Shown: in pieces, positions 5,495-60,966 of the stretch
Layout of the letters: every line of letters starts with the position of its first letter
Numbering within the stretch: position 1 is the stretch's first letter
Source: Methanocellales archaeon
Lineage (GTDB): Archaea > Halobacteriota > UBA148 > JAUWXC01
Direction: 5' to 3'
Assembly (NCBI GenBank): GCA_030610945.1
Contig: JAUWQV010000002.1
Coordinates: 28,633-92,632 of the forward strand
Length of the DNA stretch: 64,000 nucleotides
Program-made: the position numbers and the translations under genes
The notes under the pieces: model-generated
Told to the model about the DNA's origin: nothing
What the model saw: only the letters and a program-made list of their open reading frames with translations
The model's database searches: none

Positions 5495-6888
5495 AACTTC
5501 TCCCTGAGCAATTTGTTTACTGCATCCGGGTCTGCCTTTCCAGACGTCTTTTTCATGACCTGACCAATGAGGAAGTGAAACGCCTCATCCTTGCCGGCGT
5601 GATAATCCTTAACAGCGGCGAGGTTTTCCTTAATCGCCTCATCTACAGCCTTGGCGATTTCTCCCACGTCCACTTTAAGTAAACCCTTCTGTTTCACTAT
5701 CTCGGTAGGGGTACCGCCCTCATCTAATAGCGCCCTTATCACCTGCACCGCACCCTTTTCCGTGATATTCTTCTCCCGGAGCATGCGCAATATCTGAATC
5801 GTGTGCTTGGGCGAGAATGCATCGATGCCCAAACCCCTGTAATTCAATTCCCCTTTGAGAACGTCTGCAATCCATGTCGCGGCTTGATTTGTATCCACCT
5901 TGCCAGCGACATTCTCGAAGAAGTTTGCCAGTTTAAATTCAGACGTCAATACTTTTGCATGATGCTCTGAAATGTTGTACTGCTCGACAAATCGTCTTCG
6001 TTTGGCATCTGGCAACTCTGGCAGAGTTTTCTTAATCTTGGGCACTCCCTCCTTCGCCTTAAAGGGCACCAAATCGGGTTCAGGGAAGTATCGATAGTCC
6101 TTTTCCTCCTCTTTTGTCCTGAGTGATATGGTGACGCCCCTTGCTTCATCATAATGGCGCGTCTCCTGCACGACATTGATGCCTCTGCGCATCAGGTTTT
6201 TCTGCCTGACAATTTCAAACGATAGTGCCTTTTCTACCCCTTTGTAGGATGAGATGTTCTTGACTTCTGCCCTTGCGCCCCCGGTCAGTGATATGTTCGC
6301 ATCAACCCGTATTGCCCCCTCCAAATAACCGTCGAAGACATCCAGGTATTCCAGAATGTTTCGCAGTTTGTTCAAGAACTGTCGTGCCTCCTTTGGCGAC
6401 CGCAAATCTGGCTCAGTCACAATTTCCAGCAGTGCCATGCCAGAGCGATTATAGTCAATCAGCGAGTATTTTGACTTTTCAATAGGGCCCTTGTGCACCA
6501 ACCTGGCAGGGTCTTCTTCCATATGCACCCTTCTGATTCTGATATTGCGCTCGCCATCCCCCTCAATGACAAGGTTGCCTTTTATCGCAATCGGGTAGTC
6601 ATACTGCGATATCTGAAATCCCTTCGGCAAATCCGGGTAGTAATAATTCTTTCTGTAAAACAGCGTCTGCTCGGCTATTTCGCAGTTCAGTGCCAGCGCG
6701 ACCTTGATGGCAGCCTCAACGGCAGTCCTGTTCAGAACGGGCAGTGCGCCAGGCAATCCCAGGCAGACTGGACACGTGTGCGTGTTCGGCCCAGAGTCGT
6801 GGTACTTGGTGGAACATCCGCAGAACAACTTGGAGTTGAGTTTATTCAACTGCACGTGAACCTCTAAGCCGATGATGACATCCTTCAT
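5491..6888 (-). CDS. gatB: Asp-tRNA(Asn)/Glu-tRNA(Gln) amidotransferase subunit B
   Basis: 465 aa. [35 protein letters not shown] are GatB motifs. 4-nt overlap with topA. Confidence 0.95.
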
Positions 6889-8288
6889 TACGCCACCCCT
6901 GCGTGTTTCTCGAATGTGTGTGCCACTCTAAGGATGAGACCTTCGTCAAAATGCCCCCCTATAATCTGCATGCCCATGGGCAATCCATTGGCAAACCCAC
7001 ATGGGACTGAGATAGAGGGAACCCCTGCTAGATTCATGGGAACAGTGTTCACGTCTGCCAGATAGAGTGATAGCGGGTCATCGATCTTCTCGCCTATTTT
7101 GAACGCAGCACACGGCATTGTGGGTGTGATGAGTACATCCACCTTTTTGAACGCATTTTCGAAGTCCTGTTTTATCAGCGTGCGCACCTTCAGCGCCTTC
7201 AGATAATATCTCCCATAATAGCCAGCTGAGAGCGCATACGTTCCCAGGAGAATCCGGCGCTTTACCTCCTCGCCGAAGCCCTCTGCGCGTATTTCAGAAA
7301 ATGTTGTGTGCCAGTCCTTGTCCTTTTCCAGACGGAGACCATATCTGACGCCATCGAATCTCGCTAGATTCGAACTCGCCTCGCTCATGGCGATGATGTA
7401 ATACGATGCAAGGGCATACTTGGTGTGCGGCAGCGCCACCTCGGAACATGATGCGCCTAATTCTTCCAATAACGTGATACCATCCCGTACTGCATTATCG
7501 ACATCTTTGTCTACTCCTTCAAAATATTCCTCTGGCACGCCTATTTTTAAGCCAGACACGTCATCCTTGAGTTCGTCGACATATCTATTCTTCTTCATCA
7601 CATGCGATGTAGAATCTCGTGGATCATGTCCAGCGATTACATCTAACAATAACGCAACATCTTCGACGCTGCACCCAAACGGGCCAATCTGCTCCAACGA
7701 GTTTGCGTAGGAGATAAGGCCATATCTGGAAACCATGCCATACGTAGGCTTTAGTCCAACTACGCCACAAAAAGATGCAGGGCATCGGACCGAACCGCCA
7801 GTATCAGAGCCAAGCGCAATGGGCACCTCGCCGCCTGCAACCGCAGCCGCACTTCCGCCAGAAGAGCCGCCTGGAACCCTGCTTAGGTCGTGTGGATTCC
7901 TTGTAGGGCCAAAGAAACTGGTTTCCGTGGAAGAGCCCATCGCGAACTCATCCATGTTCGTTTTTCCGATGATGATGGCACCCTCCGCCTTCAGTCGCTC
8001 GATGACGTGTGCATCATACGGTGGCACGTAACCCTTCAGAATCTTGGAGGCGCATGTCGTTTGTATGCCCTTGGTGGAAATATTGTCCTTGATGGCAATC
8101 GGAACTGCTCCGAGCAATCCTCTCGTGCCATTCTTGTCGGCTTTTCTGGCCTCTTCCAATGCCTGCTCCTTTGTGAGCGTTATGAATGCATTTAATTTGC
8201 TGCGCTCGATTTTGTCAAATAGCGATTGAATAGTCTCTTCAGCTGACTCCTCTTCCATTCTCCTTTTTATCTCGCTGACGCTCATCAT
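6888..8288 (-). CDS. gatA: Asp-tRNA(Asn)/Glu-tRNA(Gln) amidotransferase subunit A
   Basis: 466 aa. Amidase signature [12 protein letters not shown]...[16 protein letters not shown]. Confidence 0.95.
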
Positions 8289-8563
8289 ACAATCCTCGGG
8301 CCTTTGAAGAATCCTTCCTCTTTTCTGGGTGCATTTCGCAGGACGTCTTCCTGGCCCAGCGACTCCTTCGCCACGTCGTCTCGAAAGACGTTCTCGATTC
8401 CGGATACATGATGTGTTGGCGTCACACTGGGGTCGATTTCATCCAGTTTTGCAAAATAATCCAGTATGGTGTTGAGCTGTCCCGTAAACTCCTCTTTCTC
8501 TTCGTCGCTCAGCTTTATCCTTGCTAGCCACCCTATGTGCTCCACATCTTTTTTGCTTATCAT
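8285..8563 (-). CDS. gatC: Asp-tRNA(Asn)/Glu-tRNA(Gln) amidotransferase subunit C
   Basis: ORF track starts at 8587. I use ATG 8563 ([22 protein letters not shown]...), the typical GatC N-terminus, which forms an ATGA overlap with the upstream gene stop (8560..8563). Confidence 0.85.
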
Positions 8564-9435
8564 GTCTCCTCCACAGGGATGTTGCATTTCTCTGCTATCG
8601 ATATAAGATATCGCTTTACCCTGCCTGCTCCCCTATACCCATGCGCACGCGACAGCCTGTCCATTGCACGATGAATGCCTGAGCCGTATTGCATCGCCTT
8701 CTTCTCTTTCCAGGCGATATCGCGCGGCACGATATCCTCAGCTAATCTCCTTAAAATGTACTTATTCTTATATCCCTCGCCAGTCTTTCGTATTTTTAGT
8801 TCAGGCGCGATTCTAAGCCCTATTTTAATGACATCATCATCCAGATACGGCTTTCGCAACTCTATGGAATTCACTGCCGTTACCGCTGTATCTCGCTTAA
8901 GGTCTACTTCAGCAATGTTTTGGATGTCCTTAATAACTTCTTGGTGCAACACATCTGCACCTTTCTCAAACGCCGTTATATGGTGATGATACCCTGCAAA
9001 TAGTTCATCTGCGCCTTGGCCAGAGAGCATGACGTTTACGCCGTCGTCGTGTGCCTTTTTCGCGGCGATAAACAGTGGCACCCCTATGCTAATTTGCGTT
9101 GGGTCAACGTTGCCTATGGCTTTTATGACTTTTGGCAGGCATGCCTCGATTTCATCTTGGGTGACGATTTTCAGGCGGAGGCAATCCTTCAAACCCAAAA
9201 GTTCTGCGGCGCGCGCTGCCTGGCGCACGTCATGGGAATCTTCCAATCCGACGGAATACAATACTACTTCGCTTCTCTCTTTAGCCATTGCCGTTATCAG
9301 CGAGCTATCCACTCCTCCGGAAAACGCGATTCCGACTTTTGGCTCAAGTCTTTCGTAAACAGCCCTCTGCAAAGCATCCCTGAGCAGATTTATGACGACA
9401 TCTTCGTCACTTATCAGTTCATCTAGGGCGCGCAT
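8560..9435 (-). CDS. Asparagine-synthetase-like PP-loop ATPase (synthetase domain only, no glutaminase domain)
   Basis: 291 aa. PP-loop AFSGGVDSS near the N-terminus, then LSGQGADELFAGY typical of the AsnB C-terminal domain. No N-terminal Ntn (Cys2) glutaminase domain is present. Confidence 0.7.
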   Translation of the reverse strand: MRALDELISDEDVVINLLRDALQRAVYERLEPKVGIAFSGGVDSSLITAMAKERSEVVLYSVGLEDSHDVRQAARAAELLGLKDCLRLKIVTQDEIEACLPKVIKAIGNVDPTQISIGVPLFIAAKKAHDDGVNVMLSGQGADELFAGYHHHITAFEKGADVLHQEVIKDIQNIAEVDLKRDTAVTAVNSIELRKPYLDDDVIKIGLRIAPELKIRKTGEGYKNKYILRRLAEDIVPRDIAWKEKKAMQYGSGIHRAMDRLSRAHGYRGAGRVKRYLISIAEKCNIPVEET

Positions 9436-9477
9436 GAACGTCTCTTATGTGGCGCGGAATAAAAGGTTTTGTCATCG

Positions 9478-10323
9478 CTAGGTGGTGACATCTGCGATGC
9501 TCTTCCCAGTCCTATCCATGTACAGACGAGCCCACCATACAATGGTCAGGGGCGCTATGACGACTATGGATAATATCATGTTGATCACTGGCCAGATGAA
9601 CACCATGTAAGGTATCATCTCCGCTATCTGGGAGATTAGACCAAGGCCCAACGAAATCGCCATTATTAAAATCCATATCATGAGCACGCCCAACTTATTG
9701 TCCAAGAAAAAACCTACGCCCTTCTTGATTCCTTGAATTGCGCCGATGTTGTCAATGACAATTACATATTTCACTGCAATGAACACGATGCTCATAATAA
9801 TGACATATAGTGCGAAGATCACCACTCCTCCTATGAACAGCGGGTCATACATTATTGCATCTATGGGTGCGTACAAAAGACTAGGGATTACAAAGATGAT
9901 TCCTATGAGCATGATCAAACCAACGATTATGTCGGCGAAGAACACAGATATAAAACTCTTTTTTCCCTGCTCAACCATATCTGATAATGTGGTGCGTCCA
10001 CTTTCCGTCGCCCTCTTTGCCATCCCAATGGCTCCTGCCGAAAAGAAAGCACCGATCAAACCTACTAAAACGATGAAGATGATGAATGCCAGCGCGATTA
10101 TCCCAATCATTGGTCCTATTTGCCCGAGTAACAGTTCAGGCGTCAGATCCTCTGGAGATACTGCCATCAGCGGCCCCAATACTACGACTACTGTCGCCAT
10201 CACCATCGCGATGGTCAATATCACCATTACTATTATGTTCAAGATGATGGGTACACAGATGTTCAGGTTCTTCTTCCACGCGTCAAATCCGTTTTTCAAT
10301 ATGGATTCTATATTTTCTGGCAT
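9478..10323 (-). CDS. Polytopic membrane protein, unknown function
   Basis: 281 aa with about 6-8 hydrophobic helices. Its start abuts the purB stop (10323/10324), so it is probably co-transcribed. No family recognised by eye. Confidence 0.5.
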   Translation of the reverse strand: MPENIESILKNGFDAWKKNLNICVPIILNIIVMVILTIAMVMATVVVVLGPLMAVSPEDLTPELLLGQIGPMIGIIALAFIIFIVLVGLIGAFFSAGAIGMAKRATESGRTTLSDMVEQGKKSFISVFFADIIVGLIMLIGIIFVIPSLLYAPIDAIMYDPLFIGGVVIFALYVIIMSIVFIAVKYVIVIDNIGAIQGIKKGVGFFLDNKLGVLMIWILIMAISLGLGLISQIAEMIPYMVFIWPVINMILSIVVIAPLTIVWWARLYMDRTGKSIADVTT

Positions 10324-11655
10324 TTATTTCAACCTCTTCACGATTTCTTCGACGCGCTCTACTGCATTGCCAAGATAGTTCTCTGGGTTCATCAATTGCT
10401 CTATCTCATCTGGCGCGAGATATTTGGTTATTCTCGCCTCCTTGCACAAGACGTCCTTCATGTGCTCGCCGGTTTCGCGCGCTTTCATGGCACACTCTCT
10501 TACGATTTCATGCGCATTCTGGCGGCCTACACCTTTCCTTGCAAGCCCTATCATCACCGCTTCTGCCATGTTCAGCCCCTTCATCATCACGAGATTTCTC
10601 TTGATGTTCTCATGATTGAATCTCAGGTTTTCGAGAGCGTCTGCCGTTAGTTTGAGGATATGGTCAGTGAGAATCGTTGATTCTGGAAGGATGATTCGCT
10701 CACAGGATGAATTTGTAAGGTCGCGTTCATCCCAGAGCGTGTTGTTCAACAGGGCAGGCTCGACGTGCCCCCTTATCACCCTCGCAAGGCCGCATACCTG
10801 CTCTGATTTAATAGGATTGCGCTTGTGTGGCATCGTGGACGAGCCGACCTGCCCTCTGCCAAATTCTTCTTCAACTTCAGCGATCTCGCTGCGCTGCAGG
10901 ATTCTTACTTCAGTGCATATCTTGTCAAGCGTAGTGGCGACGTTTGCCAGGAATGACACATATTCTGCATGTCTATCGCGCTGTATGACCTGGTTTGACG
11001 CGTCAACGGCACCCAATCCAAGATATTTCATCGTCCTTTTTTCAACCTCTCTTGCAGATGAGCCAAAAGCAGCTCCAGTGCCTACAGCACCGCTCATCTG
11101 GCCCACGAGAATGCGGGGCTTCAACTCTTCCAAGCGCTGAATATGCCTCTCAACCTCGCATGCCCAAATAGCGAATCTGAGTCCGTATGTGGTTGGGATG
11201 CCGATTTGCCCATGCGTCCTGCCTGCACAGACCGTGCACTTGTGCTTTTTGGCATGGTCAAGTAACACATTCCTCAGCGTCTTCAATTTTTCTTCCAAGA
11301 GCGCTGTAGCATCTCTGAATTGAAGCGCAAGCCCTGTGTCTGTTATATCATTAGAAGTAGCACCAAAGTGAACCCACTTGCCATCATCGCCGCACACCTC
11401 TGTAAGTGCCAAAACCATGGCCATTACATCGTGCCTAATTTTATCCTCGATATCCTTGACCCGTTCAACCTTGACTTTGTTTACGCTGGCGCTAATCGTT
11501 TTTGCGGATTTCTTGGGAATTAATCCAATATCTGCCTCTGCTTTTGCCAGCGCAGCCTCAACCTCTAAAAATTTGCGAAGCCTGGCATTCTCGGTCCAAA
11601 TCTCTTTCATCTCTGGTGTGCCGTATCGGTATTCAATTGGGTGAATTGCCATCAT
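10324..11655 (-). CDS. purB: Adenylosuccinate lyase
   Basis: 443 aa. PIEYRYGTPEM, FGATSNDI, GSSTMPHKRNP (fumarate-lyase signature). Confidence 0.9.
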   Translation of the reverse strand: MMAIHPIEYRYGTPEMKEIWTENARLRKFLEVEAALAKAEADIGLIPKKSAKTISASVNKVKVERVKDIEDKIRHDVMAMVLALTEVCGDDGKWVHFGATSNDITDTGLALQFRDATALLEEKLKTLRNVLLDHAKKHKCTVCAGRTHGQIGIPTTYGLRFAIWACEVERHIQRLEELKPRILVGQMSGAVGTGAAFGSSAREVEKRTMKYLGLGAVDASNQVIQRDRHAEYVSFLANVATTLDKICTEVRILQRSEIAEVEEEFGRGQVGSSTMPHKRNPIKSEQVCGLARVIRGHVEPALLNNTLWDERDLTNSSCERIILPESTILTDHILKLTADALENLRFNHENIKRNLVMMKGLNMAEAVMIGLARKGVGRQNAHEIVRECAMKARETGEHMKDVLCKEARITKYLAPDEIEQLMNPENYLGNAVERVEEIVKRLK

Positions 11656-52497: not shown

Positions 52498-54096
52498 ATG
52501 TATGATAAGATGGACCAATTAGAGACTATAATCGATAACGGGGAAAAAGAGAACGTAGAGTTCAAGGAATTCCTGAAAGAAGACGTGCATCTAAAGGATG
52601 ATAGGCGCCAAGGCTTAGCCTGCCAGATGAAACACAGACTGATTATGGGGCACGGCACAGCCATATATGTACTCGGCGTAACTGATGGCGGGTCGCTAAA
52701 TGGCATCTCGCGCCCTACGCTTGAGGAATCGTTATCCGTTTTAAACTGCATCGCCATAGAGGCGGGTGCAAAAGTCGCCGATTGCAAGGAATATACGGTT
52801 GATGGAGGATATGTCGCTCTTGCTACCATCAAGAGCCAGGTTGCGGCTAAAGAGCACATACTGGTTGGCACAGCAGGACATGTAGACCATGGAAAGAGCA
52901 CGCTGATAGCCTCTTTGGTCACCGGGATGCAGGACGACGGCTCTGGCAAGACCAGGATATTTATGGATGTGCTTCCGCACGAAATCGAGAGGGGGTTGTC
53001 TGCGGATTTGTCCTATGGAGTATACGGCTTCTGCTCGGGCAAGACGATCAGGCTGAAGAATCCGCTGAGCAAGAAGGAAAAAGCAGGCGTCGTTGAATCT
53101 GCTGAAAAGCTAATTTCGTTTGTGGATACCGTTGGACATGAGCCGTGGCTAAGGACGACCATAAGGGGAATCGTCGGCCAGAAACTGGACTATGGGCTGA
53201 TTGTGGTGGCGGCTGATGATGGCGTGACGCATGTTACGAGAGAGCATCTGGGAATCTTGCTTGCCATGGACCTGCCCACGATCGTTGCCATTACTAAAAT
53301 TGATAGGGCAAACAAAGAGAGAGTAGCAGAGGTGGAAAGGCATATCTCAGATGTGCTGAAAACGGTCGGACGAATACCCTTGCGCATAAGGTCCAAATCC
53401 GATTTGCACATCCTCTCTAACAAATTGAACAAGTTGAGTGAGGGTATAATCGTGCCTGTCATAAGGACATCTGCCGTTACAAAGGAGGGTTTCGACATAT
53501 TCGACCAGTTGCTGTTCCAGTTACCCAAACGGAATGCAGAGAATGCAAAACCGTTCCAGATGTATATAGATAAGGCATACCAGGTATCAGGCGTCGGAAC
53601 GGTCGTGAGCGGTTCGATTAAACAAGGGGAGGTAAAAGTAGGCGACCAGTTGCAACTTGGTCCGACCTCAGATGGAGAGGCTATCTCTGTCAAGGCCCAA
53701 TCCATCGAGATGCATTACTATAGAATCGACAAAGCCAGTGCGGGAGATATTGTGGGGATTGCACTCAAGGGTATTTCGCCAAAGGATATCAGAAGGGGCA
53801 TGGTGCTTTGTGCTGACGATCTCAAAGCAGTTAGAGAATTCGAGGCAGAAATCCTGATATTGAATCATCCCACATGCATAAAGTGCGGCTATGAACCGGT
53901 TGTCCACATGGAAACCATAGCAGAGGCGGCCACATTCAAGCAGCTGGACCGCGATTACATGATGGCAGGGCAAACCGGACTGGTGAGAATGCGATTCAAG
54001 TTCTGTCCCTACCATGTACATGAAGGGCAGAAGTTCATCTTCAGAGAGGGCAAGAGCAAGGGGATTGGGCGCGTTGTAAGGGTTTTTGGATCATGA
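52498..54096 (+). CDS. GTPBP1-family translational-type GTPase
   Basis: 532 aa. G1 GHVDHGKST, G3 DTVGHE, G4 TKID, EF-Tu-like domains II/III, and a ~130-aa N-terminal extension. Confidence 0.8.
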   Translation: MYDKMDQLETIIDNGEKENVEFKEFLKEDVHLKDDRRQGLACQMKHRLIMGHGTAIYVLGVTDGGSLNGISRPTLEESLSVLNCIAIEAGAKVADCKEYTVDGGYVALATIKSQVAAKEHILVGTAGHVDHGKSTLIASLVTGMQDDGSGKTRIFMDVLPHEIERGLSADLSYGVYGFCSGKTIRLKNPLSKKEKAGVVESAEKLISFVDTVGHEPWLRTTIRGIVGQKLDYGLIVVAADDGVTHVTREHLGILLAMDLPTIVAITKIDRANKERVAEVERHISDVLKTVGRIPLRIRSKSDLHILSNKLNKLSEGIIVPVIRTSAVTKEGFDIFDQLLFQLPKRNAENAKPFQMYIDKAYQVSGVGTVVSGSIKQGEVKVGDQLQLGPTSDGEAISVKAQSIEMHYYRIDKASAGDIVGIALKGISPKDIRRGMVLCADDLKAVREFEAEILILNHPTCIKCGYEPVVHMETIAEAATFKQLDRDYMMAGQTGLVRMRFKFCPYHVHEGQKFIFREGKSKGIGRVVRVFGS

Positions 54097-55032
54097 TAGC
54101 CCATACGACTTCATCAAAATATCCGCATTTAACCTGCCGAAGCGGTATTCTTTACCAGAGTTAATCTCCTTTACGCGCACCTTCGCTGGCGCAAAGACGT
54201 TGGGGTCTATTTTGTAAAAGTCGCCGCCGGCATCCCTCAGGATATCGCAGAACGACCTTCCGTAATCCCTAGAGCATTCTGATGGCAACTGTTCGAATAC
54301 ATCATCAAATTCATCCACGGTTAAAACGACCGAGCCATAGTAGATTATGCTGTCATTGGCGGCGCCCATGATAGCCATTTCATCATCCTTCACGGGTGCA
54401 ATCGGGGCAGCGCCGGAGGCATTCAAGATTTTGGTCGTATCATATCCAAGTTCATCCAGTTTATGCAGCGCCGTTTCCACGACCCTGCCAGAGATCTGAA
54501 TCGAGCCGACCAGCGACGAAACTGGCGCAACCAATGCGATTAAATTTTCCGCCTTTATTCCACAATCCTCTGCGATATCCTCCATCACGTGCTCATCTGG
54601 CAATTTGCTGGCTTCCAGAGCAATGACGCCGTACTTACAATCATCTTTGTAGTGGATACACTCAAAAACATCTCTCGGTTTTCTGGCAAGTGCCCTCGCA
54701 GGTCCAGACCCCATCGCAACGTAATCGCCAATCTCGATTTTCCAGCCGGCTTTTTGAGAGCCCAAGCAGGCGATTGCAGCGTGTTCTGTCGCAACGTCGA
54801 TAAATGAAAACGTTTTGCCTTTGATGGTACCATTTCGTATCGCAACTTCCCCTAATCCGCCCATGCATGCTTCTATGAACAAAATTCCTGCATCGCAACT
54901 GCCAGGCGCGTTGACGCCGCAGTCTATCACCATCGAGTTATTGGGAAGTTTGTGCACTCCAATCCTCAACTCATCTGCGCGAGCCAGCATTTTCTCCACA
55001 ATTTTAAACGCACGCTCATTCACACTTATCAT
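54091..55032 (-). CDS. mch: Methenyl-tetrahydromethanopterin cyclohydrolase
   Basis: 313 aa. Full-length similarity to the Mch family as I recall it (N-terminal ..VN..A..IV..M....EL......L.NG..V.D.GV...G). Confidence 0.9.
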   Translation of the reverse strand: MISVNERAFKIVEKMLARADELRIGVHKLPNNSMVIDCGVNAPGSCDAGILFIEACMGGLGEVAIRNGTIKGKTFSFIDVATEHAAIACLGSQKAGWKIEIGDYVAMGSGPARALARKPRDVFECIHYKDDCKYGVIALEASKLPDEHVMEDIAEDCGIKAENLIALVAPVSSLVGSIQISGRVVETALHKLDELGYDTTKILNASGAAPIAPVKDDEMAIMGAANDSIIYYGSVVLTVDEFDDVFEQLPSECSRDYGRSFCDILRDAGGDFYKIDPNVFAPAKVRVKEINSGKEYRFGRLNADILMKSYGLS

Positions 55033-55036
55033 GGCA

Positions 55037-55663
55037 TCATTCCAGAATCGCGCTCACGTTATCCCAGTCATGCTCGTATATGTGCGCTGAGATACTATGA
55101 CTCGTTATAGTTCCGGGTTTTGCACCAATGCGCTTTGCCACATATTCTAACAACTTTGCCAGCGCATACCAGTTGTTGGGCGCAGCGCCATAGAAATCGT
55201 GCGACCTGAATACCGTAGTAAGATTTAACGAATCCCTGAGCTTAAAATCGACCAGCATCATGCACGGCACTTCGTTTGACGTCGTGTCCTTCGAAGGCAT
55301 CCAAGTAATACATATCACCCTTCTGGAATTCGGCACCTCCTTGAGCTTGCGCACCGCATACTCAATCTGGTCTATTCCGTTCCAGTCGCGCAGTCTCTGC
55401 CCGTACGTGTACGTAAAGTCCTGAACGTTTTTGCCTGTAACGAATTGCTTGGCGTATTCATCCAGCCGCTCTTCGTTCCAGGGGCTGTCCTTCGGAATCA
55501 TGTCCTTATACGGGTTCTTGATGACGATGACCAGATTCAGCAGCTCTTTGGTCTTGCTGCCCCTCTCGTCCTTCAGCATGTCTCCGTGATACCATATTAA
55601 ATCCAAGCCGCGATACCACCCATCGCTGATTGTAGATGCCCTTATAAACCTTCCAACCGTCAT
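55037..55663 (-). CDS. thyA: Thymidylate synthase (archaeal ThyA type)
   Basis: Start moved to ATG 55663 (MTVGRFIRA...), forming an ATGA overlap with the upstream stop. RRVICITWMP, VPCMMLVDFK (catalytic Cys), FRSHDF. Confidence 0.85.
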   Translation of the reverse strand: MTVGRFIRASTISDGWYRGLDLIWYHGDMLKDERGSKTKELLNLVIVIKNPYKDMIPKDSPWNEERLDEYAKQFVTGKNVQDFTYTYGQRLRDWNGIDQIEYAVRKLKEVPNSRRVICITWMPSKDTTSNEVPCMMLVDFKLRDSLNLTTVFRSHDFYGAAPNNWYALAKLLEYVAKRIGAKPGTITSHSISAHIYEHDWDNVSAILE

Positions 55664-56583
55664 TTTATCTCCTTCTCCACATTTTTTGCCGCCTTCACCA
55701 TATTGGATAACTTTGCAAACGCTGCCTCTCGCGTCAAATTTCTCAGTCCGCAATCAGGGTCAATCCATATATTGTCAGCATCTAACTTTTCAACCGCTTT
55801 CCATATTCTTTTTTCTATTACCTCGATTGGCTCAACTTTGGCATCGTTTGAGTCAACGCATCCATATCCAACTTTAATTCCATGCGCTTCGATTGCTTCG
55901 CGCTCTATAGCGCCAAGATTATCCACCCTCGTAAACTCGTGGTCCAACACACTTACATTTAACTCAAGGAGTTTTTGGAATATGTCGCGTACATCACCAC
56001 ACACGTGAACAACAGGCGTCTTTACGCCTTCTATCATTTTGTTCACGGCCTGTATTCCGGTTTCCAGGTCCACTCCAACCGAGAAAACCGGCTCATCAAC
56101 CTGAATGACTTCCGCTCCTGCTTTTATCAGCGCCCGCATCTCCATTGCCTGCGCATCAGCAATATCATAAATCAGCTCCGGGTCATCGTTGGACTTATAA
56201 GGTGCCCCTTCGTTGACAACACTGGCATACGCCAGTGTAGACGGTCCCGTGACAATGCCCTTCACCTCGCGTTTCGCAATGTCCCTTGCAAAAATATAAT
56301 CATCTACAGTCGTTGGCTTTTCTGGAGGTGTAATCCTGTCCACTATAATCGGGCGCCCAGCCCGGACCTTAAATCCTGGAATATTTCTTGCAAACAGCGT
56401 GACAAAATCAGCCCTGACCTGTCCATCTGAAACCAACTGGATGCCTGCATTGACCTGATCTTTCACTGCCCCTTCTATTGCTGACCTGAATGGGTCTCTT
56501 TCGCCCTTTATCAATGCATAGACGTCACCGATATCTGGCTTGGCAGGATAGCTCCCTACAACCGTTGTGACAAAACTTGTCAT
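55660..56583 (-). CDS. metE: Core (folate-domain-less) methionine synthase, MetE C-terminal-domain type (MesA-like methylcobamide:homocysteine methyltransferase)
   Basis: Start moved to ATG 56583 (MTSFVTTVVGSYP...). QVDEP, VHVCGD, IDPDCGL (zinc/homocysteine-binding His/Cys/Cys pattern). Only ~307 aa, so there is no N-terminal folate-binding half. Confidence 0.8.
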   Translation of the reverse strand: MTSFVTTVVGSYPAKPDIGDVYALIKGERDPFRSAIEGAVKDQVNAGIQLVSDGQVRADFVTLFARNIPGFKVRAGRPIIVDRITPPEKPTTVDDYIFARDIAKREVKGIVTGPSTLAYASVVNEGAPYKSNDDPELIYDIADAQAMEMRALIKAGAEVIQVDEPVFSVGVDLETGIQAVNKMIEGVKTPVVHVCGDVRDIFQKLLELNVSVLDHEFTRVDNLGAIEREAIEAHGIKVGYGCVDSNDAKVEPIEVIEKRIWKAVEKLDADNIWIDPDCGLRNLTREAAFAKLSNMVKAAKNVEKEIK

Positions 56584-57929
56584 ATGCGTTGCATCCTCCT
56601 TCTTGCATCCATAATACATTTGCCACCTGCCACACCACCCAGAGGATTCTTCGGCGTGCCCAAAGAATGCAGGCATCTGGCAAGCACGGCAGCCCCCCTC
56701 GCCAATCCATCATCTACGAAGACCAATTCCCGATCGCCCAGTTTTTCTTGAATCAGTGCCGGTTTTGTACCGGTAATTGCCCCCCTGCCCGTGAGCCCGA
56801 TAGCACCATCCAATCCATGATTCCACGTAACTTCCAAGAGTTTCTTCACCAACTCTGCAGCAGTTAAATCTATCAGTCCCATAACCTTTGTTTTGCCACC
56901 TTCCTTTAGTAGCTCGGTACTGATCTTGCTTAATTCATTCAAACGACTTCCATTTTCTCCGACATCCACCCCTATTAAGACAACACCTGATTCCTTCAAT
57001 CCCTTGTGATTTACTGGAACGGTGCCGAATCTCCTTTCAGTGGCCACCCTCTTGATTTTGATCAGTTTCATCGCATCTGCCACGTAACTCTCTGGCACGT
57101 TAGTATCCGAAGTACCGGTTAACTGGAGCGCTGTCTCCGTGACAGGTTGAGCCAGTGCATCGAATATCGCACCTGCCAGTCCACAATAACTTCCAACCAC
57201 ATTCGCATACGGTAATTTGCCATCCGTTATCCTGCCCGATAAAGTCGTTCCAAAATCGAGTCCAACACATGGATTTCTAAAATCGATGGAAGTCCACTTA
57301 GCGCCTTCTTTAATCCCTGCCAAAACCAACTCACCCTCCATCTCATTTGCCACGATTGGCGTCTTGATACAACTCACGCTGGCGACCGTATTATCAAAAA
57401 TCACAGCATCCATAAATGAATGTCTTTGTAATGCCGTAGGCAAATTTGACTTGTTCATGGCACCGGTCATCTTGCGCGGTGGGATTCCTGCCGCTAGACA
57501 GCCATCGGCTAGCGCTTTAATAATTCCACCCACCTCTTCTGGCGTTTCAAACCCTGCTACCACTCCGGTTGACCGCACAACAAAATCCAGGTCGTCAACG
57601 CTAATCTTTGCCTTAGTCAGGGACCGAAGTAGGGTCTTTTTGGTTGCTTCTGCCACCGCTTCGCGAGATAATGGCTGGCCCCTCACTGTCAGCCCGAATA
57701 CATATTCATCATCTTTTGGTGGGCGAATAGTCGCTGTTAATTCCACGGTTTTATCCAGAAAATAGGTTCGCCCCTCTTTTAGGTCGGTAGCAGTCAGTAT
57801 ACATTTGGTCGTCGTGTTACCGAGCTCGATGGATGCGACTACATATACACTATCTTTCAGCGCAAATGATGCGTCCACGAACTTGCTTTTTGCGATCTCC
57901 ACCAATTTTCGCCCCACCATACAAAACAA
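56580..57929 (-). CDS. ASKHA-superfamily ATPase-like protein, diol-dehydratase-reactivase-like / possibly 'methanogenesis marker 14' family
   Basis: 449 aa. Phosphate-1-like IELGNTTTKC, then GLDFGTTLSG and GVDVGENGS motifs typical of actin/Hsp70/sugar-kinase-fold ATPases. The family name is from memory and needs an HMM check. Confidence 0.5.
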   Translation of the reverse strand: MFCMVGRKLVEIAKSKFVDASFALKDSVYVVASIELGNTTTKCILTATDLKEGRTYFLDKTVELTATIRPPKDDEYVFGLTVRGQPLSREAVAEATKKTLLRSLTKAKISVDDLDFVVRSTGVVAGFETPEEVGGIIKALADGCLAAGIPPRKMTGAMNKSNLPTALQRHSFMDAVIFDNTVASVSCIKTPIVANEMEGELVLAGIKEGAKWTSIDFRNPCVGLDFGTTLSGRITDGKLPYANVVGSYCGLAGAIFDALAQPVTETALQLTGTSDTNVPESYVADAMKLIKIKRVATERRFGTVPVNHKGLKESGVVLIGVDVGENGSRLNELSKISTELLKEGGKTKVMGLIDLTAAELVKKLLEVTWNHGLDGAIGLTGRGAITGTKPALIQEKLGDRELVFVDDGLARGAAVLARCLHSLGTPKNPLGGVAGGKCIMDARRRMQRI

Positions 57930-58041
57930 TACTATGATTGATTATACTTAATGCCCTCTTATGTTAGCCTTTATAAAACTTGTAAGGTTCATACAAAATC
58001 GGTAAATTTAAGATATTCCCAATATAAACACTCAATTAATT

Positions 58042-58167
58042 ATGGATTCCTATATGCCCCAATTGTATGACCTTGAGTCCCAAAAAGAGGAAGCACTCAG
58101 GAAACTGAAAAAGGAGTTGGGTGAGTGGATGGCAGCTGAATATTACACACCTCACCAAGCCTCCTGA
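58042..58167 (+). CDS. Hypothetical 41-aa micro-protein
   Basis: Not in ORF track. MDSYMPQLYDLESQKEEALRKLKKELGEWMAAEYYTPHQAS. There is an AT-rich TATA-like stretch ~30 nt upstream, and the next small ORF starts 12 nt downstream. Coding status uncertain. Confidence 0.25.
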   Translation: MDSYMPQLYDLESQKEEALRKLKKELGEWMAAEYYTPHQAS

Positions 58168-58179
58168 TTAGAGGTATGA

Positions 58180-58335
58180 ATGTTTGAAATCGCAGGAATA
58201 TGTGCTATCTGTGGAAGTGTTGCGAAAAAAATGCGCACATGCTCCCTGTGCGGGAATATTGTCTGCAGCAATTGTATTTCAGAAGGAGTTTGCGTAATTT
58301 GTGCGCGAAAGCGCTCTTTCAAATCACTGGAGTGA
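58180..58335 (+). CDS. 51-aa zinc-ribbon micro-protein with four CxxC motifs
   Basis: Not in ORF track. MFEIAGICAICGSVAKKMRTCSLCGNIVCSNCISEGVCVICARKRSFKSLE, with GAGGT 5 nt upstream of the ATG. The ORF-track entry 58200..58421 is a different, implausible frame. Confidence 0.5.
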   Translation: MFEIAGICAICGSVAKKMRTCSLCGNIVCSNCISEGVCVICARKRSFKSLE

Positions 58336-58344
58336 TGCTGGCAC

Positions 58345-59352
58345 TCATTCTTTGGTTTCCATCGCTGCAAAATACTTGGAAGAGATTACATTCTTTATCG
58401 ATTCGAACAGCAGTGCCTTAGATTTTGTGGCATCTTTCTCCCCTTGAAGAACGGTTTCGAACACACCCAGTGGTATTTCAACAGAGGCATATACCGGCGT
58501 CCCCCTGGCGTCTCCCCATACGCCAAATACCTTCTCTAACATATTTCTCATATTGGCCTCGATATTTTCGGATTTTGCATAAATATAGATGCTCGTCTTG
58601 CCAATCGCAAATGTCAGCACCGTTAAAATGCCCTCTAAGTCCAGCAAATAATCACAGACCGTTGACAATGTACTTGGATCTTTTGCATATCCCACACTCG
58701 TCACGAGATGCGTATCCTTTATCATCCTATTTTTGATGGCTTCCGCCAAATCTGCAAATGTCTCTGATTTTACGGATGGATGCTCCAATCTCGTTAACAA
58801 ACCTATATCTGCATCAGGAAAAATCTGGAGGTATGCCTTTAGGTCAAATTCATACAGGTTGGTTATTAAGCCCCTCGTCGCACCTCTAATCGCATATAAA
58901 AGTTGAGCAGCTAGCTGTTTGTCAACTGTGATGTTAAGTCGCATTAAGTACTCAATGAGTATACTTGATGTCGTTCCCACATCAGACCTGATGTCCTTTA
59001 ATTCTGCTTTTATATCCCGGGTATCGCCCCCATAATGTGTGATTATAATTGAAGGTGGACGCGTGATATGTTTCAACTGGCTTGGTACAGCACCTACAAA
59101 AGCCAGTTTCATACCGTTGATGTCGGCGGCGCTCTGAAGTACGTTGAGGTCCTCCTCCATTAAATTAAAGAGGGTTTTGTTCTGAATGTCTCCCCTATAA
59201 AATATCTTGGCGCCTGTGTGGAAGTGTTCTGCTATGCTCTTGAGTGCCAAAGCGCTGGCCAGAGAATCTGGTGAAGGGTCGTCGCATATGACGATGGCTA
59301 ATCCTTTGTCTTCGCAGGATTGTATCAGCTTCTTCAGTTTCCTGGTAAGCAT
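58345..59352 (-). CDS. DHH/DHHA1-like protein with degenerate catalytic motifs
   Basis: ATG 59352 (GTG 59382 in the ORF track). Layout resembles NrnA-type DHH proteins (DDPSPDSLAS ~ motif I, DVGTTSS ~ motif IV), but THY replaces DHH and no GGGH is visible. Confidence 0.45.
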   Translation of the reverse strand: MLTRKLKKLIQSCEDKGLAIVICDDPSPDSLASALALKSIAEHFHTGAKIFYRGDIQNKTLFNLMEEDLNVLQSAADINGMKLAFVGAVPSQLKHITRPPSIIITHYGGDTRDIKAELKDIRSDVGTTSSILIEYLMRLNITVDKQLAAQLLYAIRGATRGLITNLYEFDLKAYLQIFPDADIGLLTRLEHPSVKSETFADLAEAIKNRMIKDTHLVTSVGYAKDPSTLSTVCDYLLDLEGILTVLTFAIGKTSIYIYAKSENIEANMRNMLEKVFGVWGDARGTPVYASVEIPLGVFETVLQGEKDATKSKALLFESIKNVISSKYFAAMETKE

Positions 59353-59430
59353 CTTTTTACTTATGCTGGGAATGTTTACCACCTTGGAATATCTTGTAAC
59401 TCATATGGCCTTAAATATGTAACGCGCAAT

Positions 59431-60363
59431 TCATACCAACTTGTTTATTGGATGGTCTTCTCCTGGGATGACGTCAAAATCTGCTACCGCCTCGGCTATC
59501 ATGATGTCAGTCATTGCAGCCATTGGAAATACATACGGCGCGTTCTCAATTGGGCCATATAAAATAAAGTCGCCAGCAGCCATCTGCTGCAATCCTATCG
59601 AGCCAACATCGCATGCTTTGAAGATTAGGTCATTCTCTTTCTTCTTGTTTTTCAGCCAATTCCAAGAGGAAGGAGCGTTGTGAATCCCTGAGCCGGCAGG
59701 GAAGCCCCACTTGGCCTTCGCCACCAATGTCATTCTCAGCGCAATGCCAGCACCGTTGCCCATCGGCGTGATGCTTGGGTCTATCAAAATTTTCGAGATC
59801 CCACAATCCTCTGCAATCTGGAGCAATCCCTTCTCGGTGACGCTGGCACCATTTTCCAGGAGAGCGATGCGCCCCTCCAAGGACGAATCCATCGCGTTAA
59901 AGCCCATGACAATCGATGCATCTACATCTGAATGTGTTAATGCCTCAATTTCATCATCGGTGATGCCCATGTTAATCGAGTTGTTGATCGCCCTGTCTGC
60001 AAGTCCCACTTCTGTTGCATGCTTTACCCCTTCCATTCTAACACGCGCTTCCGTCGAATCAATCAGGAAGGGGGCCTCCGTAATCTCGCTGACAAAGTCG
60101 ATGTACTTTTTAATACCAACCTCGCTGGACCCGAAAATGTGAACCATGGAAGGATTTCCTGTTTCGTCTGCACAAGAAGATTGTTTATTGATGAGGATTT
60201 CTGCCTTCTTTTTATTGAAGAGACCTTTACTCTCATCTTCGACGATCTTATGATTGGGATAAAATATAGTGCCAGCCAAGACAGTGGCTAGCTCACCTGG
60301 TTGGCCGCCAATTTTCACCCCTGCAATATTTACTATTTTCTGCTCTGTTTGAAACCTGAACAT
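59431..60363 (-). CDS. mtrH: Tetrahydromethanopterin S-methyltransferase subunit H homolog
   Basis: 310 aa. MFRFQTEQKIVNIAGVKIGGQPGE..TVL.GTIFY and overall length match MtrH (pterin-binding TIM barrel). Confidence 0.88.
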   Translation of the reverse strand: MFRFQTEQKIVNIAGVKIGGQPGELATVLAGTIFYPNHKIVEDESKGLFNKKKAEILINKQSSCADETGNPSMVHIFGSSEVGIKKYIDFVSEITEAPFLIDSTEARVRMEGVKHATEVGLADRAINNSINMGITDDEIEALTHSDVDASIVMGFNAMDSSLEGRIALLENGASVTEKGLLQIAEDCGISKILIDPSITPMGNGAGIALRMTLVAKAKWGFPAGSGIHNAPSSWNWLKNKKKENDLIFKACDVGSIGLQQMAAGDFILYGPIENAPYVFPMAAMTDIMIAEAVADFDVIPGEDHPINKLV

Positions 60364-60372
60364 TATGGTACC

Positions 60373-60966
60373 TCACGCAATGATGCCGCTACTGGTATCC
60401 AATGATACATCCTTTGATATCACGACATCTCCTGTGCCGTTTATCTCCAATCTCTCCCTTTTCCTCTTCTTTTTCCCTGCCTGAACGACCATGGGGGGCT
60501 CTGAAAATACATTGCCCTTGTTGTGATATTCTTCTATAATCTGTAATATCTTCCCCTTGTCAGTTTCACCAGTTCTATCAATGAGCTGGACCTGGGCTTG
60601 AAACCTTTTAACGACAGCCTCAGAGATATTCTCAATGAAGGGGATTGCCCCTTCTGAACCAATAATTCTTCCGTTGCCATCGATACCATTAGCGTGAATT
60701 GCCCTTAACGTATTGCCACTCATATGCCCTCTGGATTCTTCCCCGCAAACCAATATAAACCGTATGTTTGGATTTGACACTACATTTGCCATGATTTTTT
60801 CTATTCCAAGATTCTCGGTATGGCAGGGGCCAATGAGAGCAACTTTCTTCATGTACTCTGATGCAAGCTCAAAATGGCTTGCAAGCGTAACCACGCAAAT
60901 TCTGGATTTGCCATTTCCAACTTGATAATCGCCCTTCACAACTGGCCAATCACTCATGCAACTCAT
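60373..60966 (-). CDS. mtrA: Tetrahydromethanopterin S-methyltransferase subunit A homolog, soluble (no C-terminal TM helix)
   Basis: ATG 60966 or 60957. WPVVKGDY, GPCHTENLGIEKI, ILVCGEESRGHMSGNTL (cobamide-ligand His region) match MtrA. The C-terminus is Lys/Arg-rich and hydrophilic instead of the usual membrane anchor. Confidence 0.8.
   Translation of the reverse strand: MSCMSDWPVVKGDYQVGNGKSRICVVTLASHFELASEYMKKVALIGPCHTENLGIEKIMANVVSNPNIRFILVCGEESRGHMSGNTLRAIHANGIDGNGRIIGSEGAIPFIENISEAVVKRFQAQVQLIDRTGETDKGKILQIIEEYHNKGNVFSEPPMVVQAGKKKRKRERLEINGTGDVVISKDVSLDTSSGIIA

Follow-up and report, generated by a model that had tools for sequence, protein, structure and literature searches.

Mmp14 beside a core methionine synthase and a soluble MtrA-type corrinoid protein in Methanocellales relatives: a possible four-part methionine synthase

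Described systems for corrinoid methyl transfer and reactivation

MetH, the cobalamin-dependent methionine synthase, shares its logic, as do its split forms, with the genes described here: a pterin methyltransferase (MtrH), a B12 carrier (MtxA), a zinc-dependent homocysteine module (MesA) and a reactivation function (proposed here for Mmp14). The modules of MetH are not homologous to any of these four parts, save for the distant pterin-binding barrel of MtrH, and the methyl donor is methyl-folate for MetH versus methyl-H4MPT in our proposal. MetH is reactivated with AdoMet and flavodoxin, not with ATP. The Mtr complex (MtrA-H) and the mtxXAH genes of Methanosarcinales, like the window (the whole 64,000-nt stretch of DNA analysed, from a Methanocellales archaeon), combine MtrH with an MtrA-family corrinoid protein that has an identical His ligand. 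The RFC/mtxA-mtxH locus is shared with Methanosarcina, and in many methanogens the gene immediately downstream of mtrH is Mmp14. Unlike Mtr, the window's locus has no membrane subunits MtrB-G and its MtrA-type protein no transmembrane anchor; unlike mtxXAH, it has no mtxX. CoM, the acceptor of Mtr, is not made at all in the relative Met12. The MesA family consists, as here, of the catalytic MetE barrel only, with its Zn ligands, Methanocella sequences as closest relatives and MtrA as predicted donor. Price et al. (2021) described MesA in methanogens only, with Mmp14 unmentioned, whereas the window's MesA is encoded head-to-tail with Mmp14 and belongs to a clade whose characterised member is a non-methanogen.

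Two groups of activating ATPases are relevant. RACE activases (RamA, RACo; COG3894/Pfam DUF4445) are ASKHA ATPases, as Mmp14 is predicted to be, and are likewise encoded with a corrinoid methyl carrier; they act on that carrier protein, as Mmp14 may do. In Phaeobacter and Desulfovibrio, genetic data show that a split MetH depends on RamA-like proteins (Price 2018, PMC5764234). DdrA/GdrA, EutA and GlmL/MutL, the analogy drawn in the original prediction, are ASKHA/Hsp70-like and reactivate B12 enzymes through a cofactor exchange powered by ATP, although the targets of the DdrA/GdrA type are radical AdoCbl enzymes and not methyl-transfer corrinoid proteins. The reductive activase of Mtr itself is still described as uncharacterised (PMC12774963).

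The gene cluster and its products

Four co-directional open reading frames occupy 57929..54091 on the minus strand of the window. They encode Mmp14/DUF2114, a predicted ASKHA-fold ATPase (57929..56580), a MesA-type core methionine synthase (56583..55660), the methanogen-type thymidylate synthase ThyA (55663..55037) and, last, the methenyl-H4MPT cyclohydrolase Mch (55032..54091). The originally predicted layout is confirmed exactly from the sequence, with ATGA stop/start overlaps between Mmp14 and MesA (56580..56583) and between MesA and ThyA (55660..55663), and a 4-nt gap between ThyA and Mch (55033..55036). As evidence for translational coupling these junctions are weak, since 11 of the 44 same-strand neighbour pairs in the window (25%), including the unrelated topA-gatB, overlap likewise by 4 or 1 nt in this compact genome. 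The gene order itself is kept in relatives, and the cluster is a real, conserved gene unit of the Met12/Met33H clade, relatives of Methanocellales with genomes of about 1 Mb. For Mmp14, the first TTG (449 aa), the ATG at 57920 (446 aa) and the GTG at 57902 (440 aa) are equally possible starts; the public gene call P0001 takes the GTG.

Downstream, a GTPase gene (52498..54096) converges on Mch and overlaps it by 6 nt. Upstream, direct reading of the sequence shows a 415-nt intergenic region (57930..58344) that probably serves as promoter for the four genes; only seven of the 44 same-strand pairs, this one included, are more than 100 nt apart. At minus-strand positions 57970..57977 the region has a TATA-like TTTATAAA. 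It is followed on the same strand by genes for a 345-aa protein (58345..59382), an MtrH-family methyl-H4MPT:corrinoid methyltransferase (59431..60363) and an anchor-less, MtxA-type soluble corrinoid protein of the MtrA family (60373..60966). Because the 345-aa gene and the 415-nt gap stand between MtrH and Mmp14, the MtrA/MtrH pair is probably on a separate transcript. The 345-aa protein, of unknown family, is weakly DHH-phosphoesterase-like (NF003877, E=0.003 only) and has no Pfam match; its gene is found in Met33H and absent in Met12.

The marker 14 identity proposed for the first gene product is borne out by matches to TIGR03285 (methanogenesis marker 14; 533 bits, cutoff 274, NCBIfam) and PF09887 (DUF2114; 543 bits, Pfam), and the family has no assigned function in the searchable literature, as was also stated. 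Its ASKHA reading stands as well: the AF2 model (pLDDT 90) has a confident ASKHA fold, and the best 50 of 348 Foldseek matches in the PDB (E<=1e-3) are all ASKHA proteins, led by Kae1, FtsA, AnmK and sugar kinases at TM of only 0.3-0.46. The phosphate-1, phosphate-2 and adenosine-type motifs are intact and invariant across 68 homologs, including the hairpin motifs E26-x-G-N-T-T-T-K and D216-F-G-T-T as well as G-x-T-G-R. The family is highly conserved (mean column identity 57-62%) and forms only 165 clusters at 50% identity among 1.84 billion proteins. The likeness to diol-dehydratase reactivases is unsupported. Neither PF08841 (DDR) nor RACE was matched in Pfam even at E<=10, where DUF2114 alone was found; the Mmp14 HMM matched no PDB sequence; RACE is not among the best 50 of 348 Foldseek matches; and no small-subunit partner of the DdrA/GdrA kind is seen at the locus. 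In these searches Mmp14 has no specific sequence or structural likeness to DdrA or RACE. Pfam and the family alignment reveal no Fe-S or ferredoxin domain in Mmp14, again unlike RACE, and its invariant Cys are limited to C410 and C429, both in the C-terminal tail, so that the protein offers no route for the electrons that would reduce Co(II).

MesA matches NF002119 (methionine synthase; 336 bits, cutoff 258), with PF01717 (Meth_synt_2) as its sole Pfam domain, which agrees with the prediction of a MetE core lacking the N-terminal half. The Zn-ligand motifs are present, with H193-x-C195 (HVC193-195), E216 (DHE214-216) and C278 (DPDCG275-279), and the protein is 53-58% identical to methionine synthases of Methanocella. 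MtrH matches TIGR01114 (433 bits, cutoff 271) and PF02007, with E=0.004 only for the pterin-binding PF00809, and the Supplementary Data of Suzuki 2024 place its Met12 ortholog in the second of the MtrH ortholog clusters, the Mtx-type one. The MtxA-type protein matches PF04208 (199 bits), scores below cutoff for NF010654 (264 bits, cutoff 279) and TIGR01111 (189 bits, cutoff 249), and aligns to the solved cytoplasmic domain of MtrA (5LAA) at E=2e-44. In alignment it lacks the C-terminal membrane helix and retains the Co-ligand His (...EESRGH). Beyond the clade, it is closest to 197-aa paralogs from Methanosarcina and ANME-2, which are located in the RFC/mtx(X)AH locus. ThyA (TIGR03283, 260 bits, cutoff 174.55) adjoins Mmp14 or MesA throughout the Methanocellales subclade of the window. 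Mch (TIGR03120, 415 bits, cutoff 229) is present in the Met33H cluster and absent from that of Met12. Its membership of the Mmp14-MesA unit is not conserved and, as a central-pathway enzyme, it does not fit the anabolic 'exit' from the H4MPT pool that was ascribed to it. ThyA (methylene-H4MPT to dTMP) and Mch appear as co-transcribed C1 neighbours with no visible mechanistic tie to a methyl relay.

Mmp14 neighbourhoods in relatives and across archaea

Met12 is a documented non-methanogen in which Mcr, the synthesis of CoM, CoB and F430, and membrane-bound Mtr have been lost and the H4MPT branch of the Wood-Ljungdahl pathway is kept (PMC11176372). Its genome (CP017966.2) retains MtrA'-MtrH'-DUF2114-MesA-ThyA with an identical 4-nt Mmp14/MesA overlap. 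This gene order can also be read in the Met12 paper's own gene table. Comparison of the window with Met12 gives a dN/dS of 0.08 for Mmp14 and 0.08-0.14 over Mmp14, MesA and MtrA', the three genes computed, as dS is saturated for MtrH and ThyA; these three are under purifying selection. Survival of the cluster in Met12 fits an anabolic relay from methyl-H4MPT through a corrinoid to homocysteine. A Cdh complex is also encoded by Met12, and its CoFeSP could donate methyl groups as well. In the sister clade, RFC/MtxA-MtrH and Mmp14-ThyA are at separate sites, the latter with no MesA; mtxAH came to lie beside Mmp14-MesA only once, as a derived arrangement in a genome undergoing reduction.

Earlier publications have linked Mmp14 (arCOG04866/m26) to Mtr and found it absent from Mtr-less H4MPT users and Methanomassiliicoccales (Borrel 2014; Adam 2022; PMC4153887; PMC9635834 supplement). 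Our neighbourhood count reproduces that link: in 28 of 80 genome loci, Mmp14 has MtrA or MtrH no more than 10 kb away. The predicted synteny holds across many lineages. MtrA/MtrH is directly upstream of Mmp14 on the same strand in Methanobacteriaceae, Methanocellaceae and Archaeoglobales-labelled MAGs, and in Thorarchaeota-labelled MAGs the genes MtrH-MtrA-MtrH-Mmp14 form a closely spaced operon (gaps 3-14 nt), with no MetE-family gene found within 10 kb. Other neighbours include CobY-like, CobN-like and MptA genes; a CobY-like cobamide-biosynthesis gene follows Mmp14 in about 20 Methanobacteriaceae loci. Synteny with MetE-family methionine synthases recurs in three separate lineages, but the family is not MesA-specific as a whole, a MetE-family gene (MesA) being within 10 kb in only 4 of the 80 canonical loci. 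Two recurrences are independent. One is in a Methanopyri-like lineage (L005, L013) with the order mtr...CobN-like-Mmp14-DUF2115-MesA. The other involves a divergent sister family of DUF2114, including an MSBL1 member, that is divergently paired with split MetE in all four contigs. Its members share only 28-37% identity; they keep the GCDVGxNGS and RxGxVPV motifs, the phosphate-1, phosphate-2 and adenosine motifs are degenerate and the Cys tail is lost. Given these changes, and a lineage that is reportedly without Mtr (Adam 2022), a scaffold or partner role fits the divergent family better than cobamide repair.

Possible roles of Mmp14

What the genes encode, the fold of Mmp14, the patterns of synteny and the purifying selection are observed, and we infer each of the methyl-transfer steps, the use of ATP and the way in which Mmp14 helps. 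MtxA, MtrH, MesA and Mmp14 may together form a methyl-H4MPT-driven, cobamide-mediated methionine synthase, to which we give a probability of roughly 40%. MtrH' would pass the methyl group of methyl-H4MPT to Co(I) of the MtxA-type protein, from which the MesA core would transfer it to homocysteine at its Zn-thiolate site. Mmp14, as an ATP-dependent activating or coupling factor, would maintain the system by returning Co(II) to the active state, loading the cofactor or coupling MtxA to MesA. The four genes would then correspond in function to the MetH modules for pterin, B12, homocysteine and reactivation. This reading draws on the retention of MtxA-MtrH-Mmp14-MesA-ThyA in Met12 without Mcr, CoM or membrane Mtr, on the Methanopyri-like and split-MetE linkages, on the tracking of MtrA/MtrH by Mmp14, on its fold and invariant nucleotide motifs and on the CobY-like neighbours. 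The donor MtrA predicted for MesA on other grounds (Price 2021), the split MetH that needs a RamA-like activase and the uncharacterised Mtr activase also count for it. Against it stand the lack of likeness to known activases and reactivases and of an electron path, the rarity of MetE-family neighbours at canonical loci, the single derived origin of the mtxAH adjacency, the commonplace overlaps, the degenerate nucleotide motifs and lost Cys tail of the split-MetE-linked family, the alternative donor CoFeSP, and a non-methanogenic status that is documented for Met12 and not for the window's organism. Of the original interpretation, the association of Mmp14 with MtrAH and MesA stands, while the reactivase likeness, the MesA specificity, the role of Mch and the weight given to coupling are unsupported or overstated.

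Somewhat unlikely, in our judgement, is that Mmp14 maintains or assembles MtrA-type corrinoid proteins in general (the energy-conserving Mtr as well as the soluble paralog Mtx), loading cofactor or reductively activating them with no special relation to methionine synthase, so that its adjacency to MesA reflects packing of unrelated C1 genes during genome reduction. The 28 to 4 ratio of neighbourhoods, the published Mtr link, the Mmp14-ThyA pair of the sister clade and the 25% of overlapping pairs suit this explanation, as does the occurrence of Mmp14 in Methanosarcinales, which carry MesC and not MesA (Price 2021). Yet Met12 has neither membrane Mtr nor CoM and keeps Mmp14 under strong purifying selection head-to-tail with MesA, the Methanopyri-like lineage links the two independently, and the divergent family, in a lineage reported to be Mtr-less, is always beside split MetE.

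It seems improbable that DUF2114 is a partner, scaffold or chaperone of MetE-family synthases (MesA, split MetE) that stabilises or regulates the enzyme or docks its methyl donor without cobamide redox or cofactor-exchange chemistry, the mtr linkage then reflecting MtrA as donor. Such a role would agree with the constant pairing of the divergent family despite its low identity, with its degenerate phosphate and adenosine motifs beside the retained GCDVGxNGS and RxGxVPV, and with the finding of an Fe-S domain nowhere in DUF2114. However, the invariant nucleotide-binding motifs of canonical Mmp14 would imply real ATP use, and the Thorarchaeota-labelled operon has no MetE-family gene nearby. Pyrococcus and Pyrolobus are not known to have DUF2114. 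Both carry a described split MetE (Price 2021), and Archaeoglobus lacks Mmp14 yet has MesC (TIGR03285 defined as methanogen-only; Price 2021). That Mmp14 is an unrelated ASKHA enzyme, such as a small-molecule kinase in H4MPT/cobamide biosynthesis or another process, with indirect adjacencies, is very unlikely: kinases and Kae1-like enzymes lead its best 50 of 348 Foldseek matches and CobY-like, CobN-like and MptA genes adjoin it elsewhere, but its distribution follows MtrA and not general H4MPT/cobamide use, and its very high conservation (57-62%, 165 clusters) is typical of protein-partner constraint.

Through its gene context, the orphan family Mmp14 ("methanogenesis marker 14") gains a testable role.

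Gene content and relatives of the Mmp14-MesA locus

Four minus-strand genes run from 57929 to 54091 exactly as the original prediction had described them; ATGA overlaps occupy 56580..56583 and 55660..55663 and a 4-nt spacer occupies 55033..55036, all read from the sequence. Mmp14 (methanogenesis marker 14, or DUF2114; 57929..56580), recognized by NCBIfam and Pfam, is followed by a core methionine synthase of the MesA type (MesA, 56583..55660), which has the catalytic MetE barrel alone (NF002119, 336 bits, cutoff 258), by a ThyA of the methanogen type (55663..55037; TIGR03283) and by Mch (55032..54091; TIGR03120). Candidate starts for Mmp14 are TTG at 57929, ATG at 57920 and GTG at 57902; the protein of the public gene call has 440 aa. 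Upstream on the same strand are a 197-aa MtrA-family protein (MtrA', 60966..60373), MtrH (MtrH', 60363..59431) and, between MtrH' and Mmp14, a 345-aa protein of no known family (59382..58345), which has no Pfam match and a marginal DHH-phosphoesterase-like match (E=0.003) and is present in the related genome Met33H and absent from Met12. Because a 415-nt gap with a TATA-like element (TTTATAAA, 57970..57977) precedes Mmp14, the four genes probably form a transcript of their own. Rfam and tRNA scans gave no match in the Mmp14-MesA locus.

The genome is very compact. Among the 44 same-strand neighbour pairs in the window, 24 overlap or are spaced by 20 nt or less; 11 of these 24 share 4 or 1 nt, among them the functionally unrelated topA and gatB (5491-5494). 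Stop/start overlaps are therefore no evidence of functional coupling here. Convergent with Mch, and overlapping its 3' end by 6 nt, a plus-strand gene (52498-54096) encodes a 532-aa EF-Tu/SelB-like GTPase with an N-terminal extension of about 115 aa, which scores under the cutoffs for selB and EF-1alpha. The sister clade (L086) shares the GTPase-Trm5 pair, there placed downstream of Mmp14-ThyA. At 1783-1913 on the minus strand, Rfam reports a tRNA over 131 nt that is missing from the ARAGORN calls; it is probably an archaeal tRNA with an intron.

MtxA proteins are recognized by an MtrA fold, a histidine cobalt ligand, a length of about 197 aa and the lack of a C-terminal membrane helix (arCOG03220/NF010654). 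MtrA' lacks the helix and retains the histidine, and scores 264 bits against NF010654, slightly below the cutoff of 279; it is of this anchor-less Mtx type, and a canonical MtrA was ruled out. Suzuki 2024 (PMC11176372) assigns its Met12 ortholog to arCOG03220, and outside the clade MtrA' is closest to the 197-aa MtxA paralogs found in Methanosarcinales and ANME-2; no function is assigned to MtxAH. MtrH' matches TIGR01114 over its full length (433 bits, cutoff 271). For MesA, Price 2021 specifies the MetE catalytic domain alone, the Zn ligands H/C/E/C and at least about 40% identity (174 bits) to METE_METTM. The window enzyme, a probable MesA, consists of this domain alone with the Zn ligands in place, clusters with Methanocella MesA and is 53-58% identical to the enzymes of Methanocella, whose order is listed as MesA-bearing.

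The sequence of the window recurs unchanged in a Logan contig of run SRR14865926, and its Mmp14 shares 97% identity with the Mmp14 of 'Methanosarcinales archaeon Met33H' (complete genome, 987,146 bp). The window proteins share 66-78% identity with those of Met12 (CP017966.2, 1,067,436 bp), a non-methanogenic member of the Methanocellales that has no Mcr, Hdr, CoM/CoB/F430 biosynthesis or Mtr complex and retains the H4MPT Wood-Ljungdahl branch and Cdh (Suzuki et al. 2024; PMC11176372). By extrapolation from Met12, the window organism would be non-methanogenic too. According to its genome and the gene table of PMC11176372, Met12 carries MtrA (195 aa)-MtrH-DUF2114-MesA-ThyA beside RFC, with the same 4-nt overlap at the Mmp14/MesA junction and with neither the DHH-like gene nor Mch. 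Mch is thus ruled out as a conserved member of the unit, which leaves the earlier picture of an operon bundling 'three anabolic exits' unsupported. Between the window and Met12, dN/dS is 0.08 for Mmp14, 0.14 for MesA and 0.11 for MtrA', with synonymous sites saturated; these values indicate that all three are maintained by selection.

PMC11176372 describes Met12 as lacking the Mtr complex (MtrABCDEGH). MtrA-family (arCOG03220) and MtrH genes nevertheless adjoin marker 14 and MetE at Met12 6506-11585 (L082), and also appear in the paper's own gene table. What Met12 has lost is the membrane complex, not the soluble Mtx-type pair, and since the pair is kept, the published statement needs to be qualified.

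Mmp14-MesA-ThyA is conserved in the clade of Met12, Met33H and the window, and in one further locus (L003). In the sister clade (UBA148, GCA_028692575), Mmp14-ThyA occurs without MesA, and MtxA-MtrH lies elsewhere, beside RFC. As the two are separate there, and as the arrangement of RFC next to mtx(X)AH is ancestral and shared with Methanosarcina, mtxAH came to lie next to Mmp14-MesA in one derived event. ThyA has long adjoined Mmp14 in the subclade of the window.

Family and predicted fold of Mmp14

The proposed membership in the marker 14 family is confirmed by 533 bits against TIGR03285 (cutoff 274), covering profile positions 2-445 of 446, and by 543 bits against PF09887 (DUF2114; the family is also arCOG04866). 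The family is small and extremely conserved, with only 165 clusters at 50% identity among 1.84 billion proteins and a mean column identity of 57-62% across orders. Although the marker was originally defined as exclusive to methanogens, the family extends beyond them, with an ortholog in the non-methanogen Met12 and members in Thorarchaeota-labelled MAGs. The label 'marker' no longer holds, and marker 14 in MAGs is unfit as evidence of methane metabolism.

An AF2 model of Mmp14 built with 68 homologs has a pLDDT of 90.2 and a pTM of 0.91. Foldseek returned 348 matches to this model in the PDB at E<=1e-3; the 50 listed are without exception ASKHA proteins, among them Kae1/TsaD, FtsA, AnmK, glucokinase, MK0840 and the BcrAD-like subunit 9gai_C; with TM scores of only 0.3-0.46, they speak for the generic ASKHA fold only. 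ASKHA proteins have two RNase-H-like domains, beta-hairpin phosphate-1 and phosphate-2 motifs, and an adenosine motif. Invariant in the Mmp14 homologs are hairpins at residues 19-40 (ELGNTTTK) and 212-226 (DFGTT) and a GxTGR at 369-373, which correspond to the phosphate-1, phosphate-2 and adenosine motifs, and the predicted fold places Mmp14 in the superfamily. The third of the motifs first proposed, GVDVGENG, is not an ASKHA phosphate or adenosine motif.

The suggested likeness to DdrA-type reactivases did not hold up. Even at E<=10, Pfam returned only DUF2114 plus noise, with no match to DdrA/GdrA (DDR, PF08841), EutA, GlmL or RACo/DUF4445 (COG3894, PF14574) and no Fe-S (ferredoxin-like) electron-input domain. 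A profile HMM of 68 Mmp14 sequences found nothing below E=0.6 among all PDB sequences, and DdrA/GdrA are not among the top 50 Foldseek matches. Homology to the known reactivases is ruled out by the Pfam result, in which no ASKHA, DDR or RACE (RamA/RACo-type reductive activase) family appears. As a likeness to DdrA, EutA, GlmL or RACE is undetected by either Pfam or the PDB-sequence profile, 'reactivase-like' can describe Mmp14 by analogy, not by homology. The only invariant cysteines, C410 and C429, both lie in the C-terminal ARC...GTPKNPxGGxxGGxC tail. Searching the literature by family name and locus tag, we found no functional study of Mmp14 and no paper proposing a fold, an activity or a methionine link for it.

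Genomic neighbours of DUF2114 proteins

Neighbourhoods of canonical Mmp14 were clustered without bias for the best 80 of at least 582 genome loci. MtrA or MtrH lies within 10 kb in 28 of these 80, and a MetE-family gene does so in only 4. In Methanobacteriaceae (about 20 loci), mcr-mtrEDCBAFGH is followed, after 0-4 genes, by Mmp14, a CobY-like nucleotidyltransferase and a PRC-barrel protein. The CobY-like gene scores 171 bits against TIGR00454 (cutoff 174.7) and 157 bits against NF045495, so that Mmp14 sits here between the mtr operon and a gene of cobamide-biosynthesis type (positions +1/+2 in L021, L025, L033, L054, L055, L057, L073, L077 and other loci). One of these contigs, L077 (CAVDAS010000029.1), is binned as 'Bacteroidaceae bacterium' and carries mcrG/mcrA-like-mtrEDCBAFGH-Mmp14-CobY-like; it is a mis-binned Methanobacteriaceae contig. 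Methanocellaceae have mtrEDCBA(A)GH-Mmp14, Thorarchaeota-labelled MAGs have MtrH-MtrA-MtrH-Mmp14 with gaps of 3-14 nt, and Archaeoglobales-labelled MAGs have Mtr genes 4-6 kb upstream of Mmp14. A thioredoxin is encoded directly upstream of Mmp14, on the same strand, in Methanolobus, Methanohalophilus and relatives including Methanohalobium (14 loci; L016, L026, L031, L038, L044, L049 and others); together with the two invariant cysteines of Mmp14, this may point to control by thiol redox state.

The association with Mtr is already known from the literature. Borrel 2014 (PMC4153887) noted arCOG04866 near mtr and its absence from the Mtr-less Methanomassiliicoccales, and Adam 2022 (PMC9635834) described m26_DUF2114 as 'tied to Mtr', including in Thorarchaeia and B25 Bathyarchaeia. 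Such neighbours would suit a general maintenance factor of MtrA or Mtr with no special link to methionine, a rather unlikely reading that is still the strongest of the alternatives; set against it are the lineages in which DUF2114 proteins sit beside MetE-family enzymes.

Besides the window clade, a high-GC Methanopyri-like lineage (L005, L013) joins an mtr operon, CobN-like fragments, Mmp14, DUF2115 and MesA through overlapping junctions, a linkage independent of the window clade. In L005, the CobN/Mg-chelatase-like gene is split over 6539-9938, with an N-half (7866-9938, plus strand) that overlaps the Mmp14 start and a C-half (6539-7897) on the opposite strand, reflecting either an inversion or a misassembly. 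An exhaustive profile search further revealed a divergent DUF2114 family, whose proteins measure 380-410 aa and share 23-29% identity with Mmp14. It falls under the TIGR03285 cutoff at 95 bits, and one member stems from an MSBL1 single-cell genome. On all four contigs long enough to be informative, its genes are divergently paired with a split MetE, 100-630 nt away (L092, 5917-9152; L093, 5381-9176; L094, 5831-9146; L095, 3787-7191); P0400, on a contig of 1.6 kb, was uninformative. The split MetE consists of a non-catalytic, N-half-like barrel without the H/C/E Zn ligands and a catalytic barrel with them. The DUF2114-like proteins of these four contigs are mutually only 28-37% identical, so the pairing is old. 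A metagenome scan with the 4-sequence alignment of the divergent family gave only 2 loci. H4MPT-biosynthesis genes (MptE-like, DHNA) occur near the pair on these MSBL1/Persephonarchaea-type contigs, and Persephonarchaea, the lineage of the divergent family, are reported to have lost Mtr (Adam 2022, PMC9635834).

In other lineages examined (Mnemosynella, L083), MesA has no DUF2114 protein nearby and instead a 266-aa partner. The MesA homologs at L083 8915-9715 and L085 7178-7978 are translationally coupled to this protein, which has no Pfam family and may be a different partner or methyl donor of MesA. With the window clade, the Methanopyri-like lineage and the divergent family combined, DUF2114-fold proteins are considerably more likely to be functionally tied to MetE-family methionine synthases than one would gather from the figure of 4 in 80 alone.

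The divergent family has degenerate nucleotide-binding motifs, lacks the C-terminal Cys tail and keeps GVDVGENG as the one shared motif. To judge from these sequences it apparently has no ATPase function, a point in favour of a binding or scaffold role. Mmp14 itself could then be a partner or scaffold of MetE-family enzymes without cobamide chemistry; with its own nucleotide-binding motifs invariant, we consider this improbable. Least credible is that Mmp14 is an unrelated ASKHA enzyme.

A candidate four-component methionine synthase

The best-supported reading of the locus is a four-component methionine synthase formed by MtrH', MtxA' (the soluble MtrA'), MesA and Mmp14. MtrH' would methylate Co(I)-MtxA' from methyl-H4MPT, and MesA would pass the methyl group on to homocysteine. 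Mmp14 would draw on ATP, either for activating or loading the corrinoid protein or for coupling it to MesA. Gene identity, fold, synteny and purifying selection are established; this methyl route, the ATP use and the nature of Mmp14's help are inferred. The four components would mirror the four modules of MetH, and the proposal resembles the split MetH of Phaeobacter and Desulfovibrio with its RamA-like (ASKHA) activase, shown genetically (PMC5764234). The reading has weak points: Mmp14 has neither an electron-input domain nor homology to known activases, the mtxAH juxtaposition happened once, the divergent sister family points rather to a scaffold, and CoFeSP is an alternative methyl donor. 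The interpretation first attached to these genes is thus partly supported and partly anticipated by the literature, while the sequence observation behind it was right. New here are the ASKHA assignment of Mmp14, the survival of an MtxA/MtrH/Mmp14/MesA cluster in a lineage that lost methanogenesis, and a pairing between DUF2114-fold proteins and MetE-family enzymes that recurs.

Three questions of archaeal C1 metabolism would become directly testable with four small soluble proteins. These are the in vivo methyl donor of MesA, predicted by Price 2021 from phyletic patterns to be MtrA; the role of the near-universal and very highly conserved Mmp14/DUF2114, of which the literature says just that it is 'linked to Mtr'; and the reactivation of the oxidised cobamide of MtrA, whose reactivase was 'as-yet uncharacterised' in 2025 (PMC12774963). 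Genomes of the Met12 type are a natural knockout of the rest of methanogenesis and isolate the anabolic role. More broadly, we tentatively suggest, with a probability of roughly 0.3, that marker 14 is not a methanogenesis protein and is instead the missing ATP-dependent activating or coupling part in MtrA/MtxA-mediated methyl transfer from methyl-H4MPT to core methionine synthases. In addition, Mmp14 may be the activase that has long been sought for the energy-conserving Mtr complex. If the suggestion is true, MtrH, MtxA, MesA and Mmp14 would be the archaeal, non-homologous counterpart of MetH, which would explain how MesA is supplied with methyl groups in vivo, why the family survives in archaea without methane metabolism (the Met12 clade, Thorarchaeia), and why its degenerate sister family is tied to split MetE in MSBL1-type archaea.
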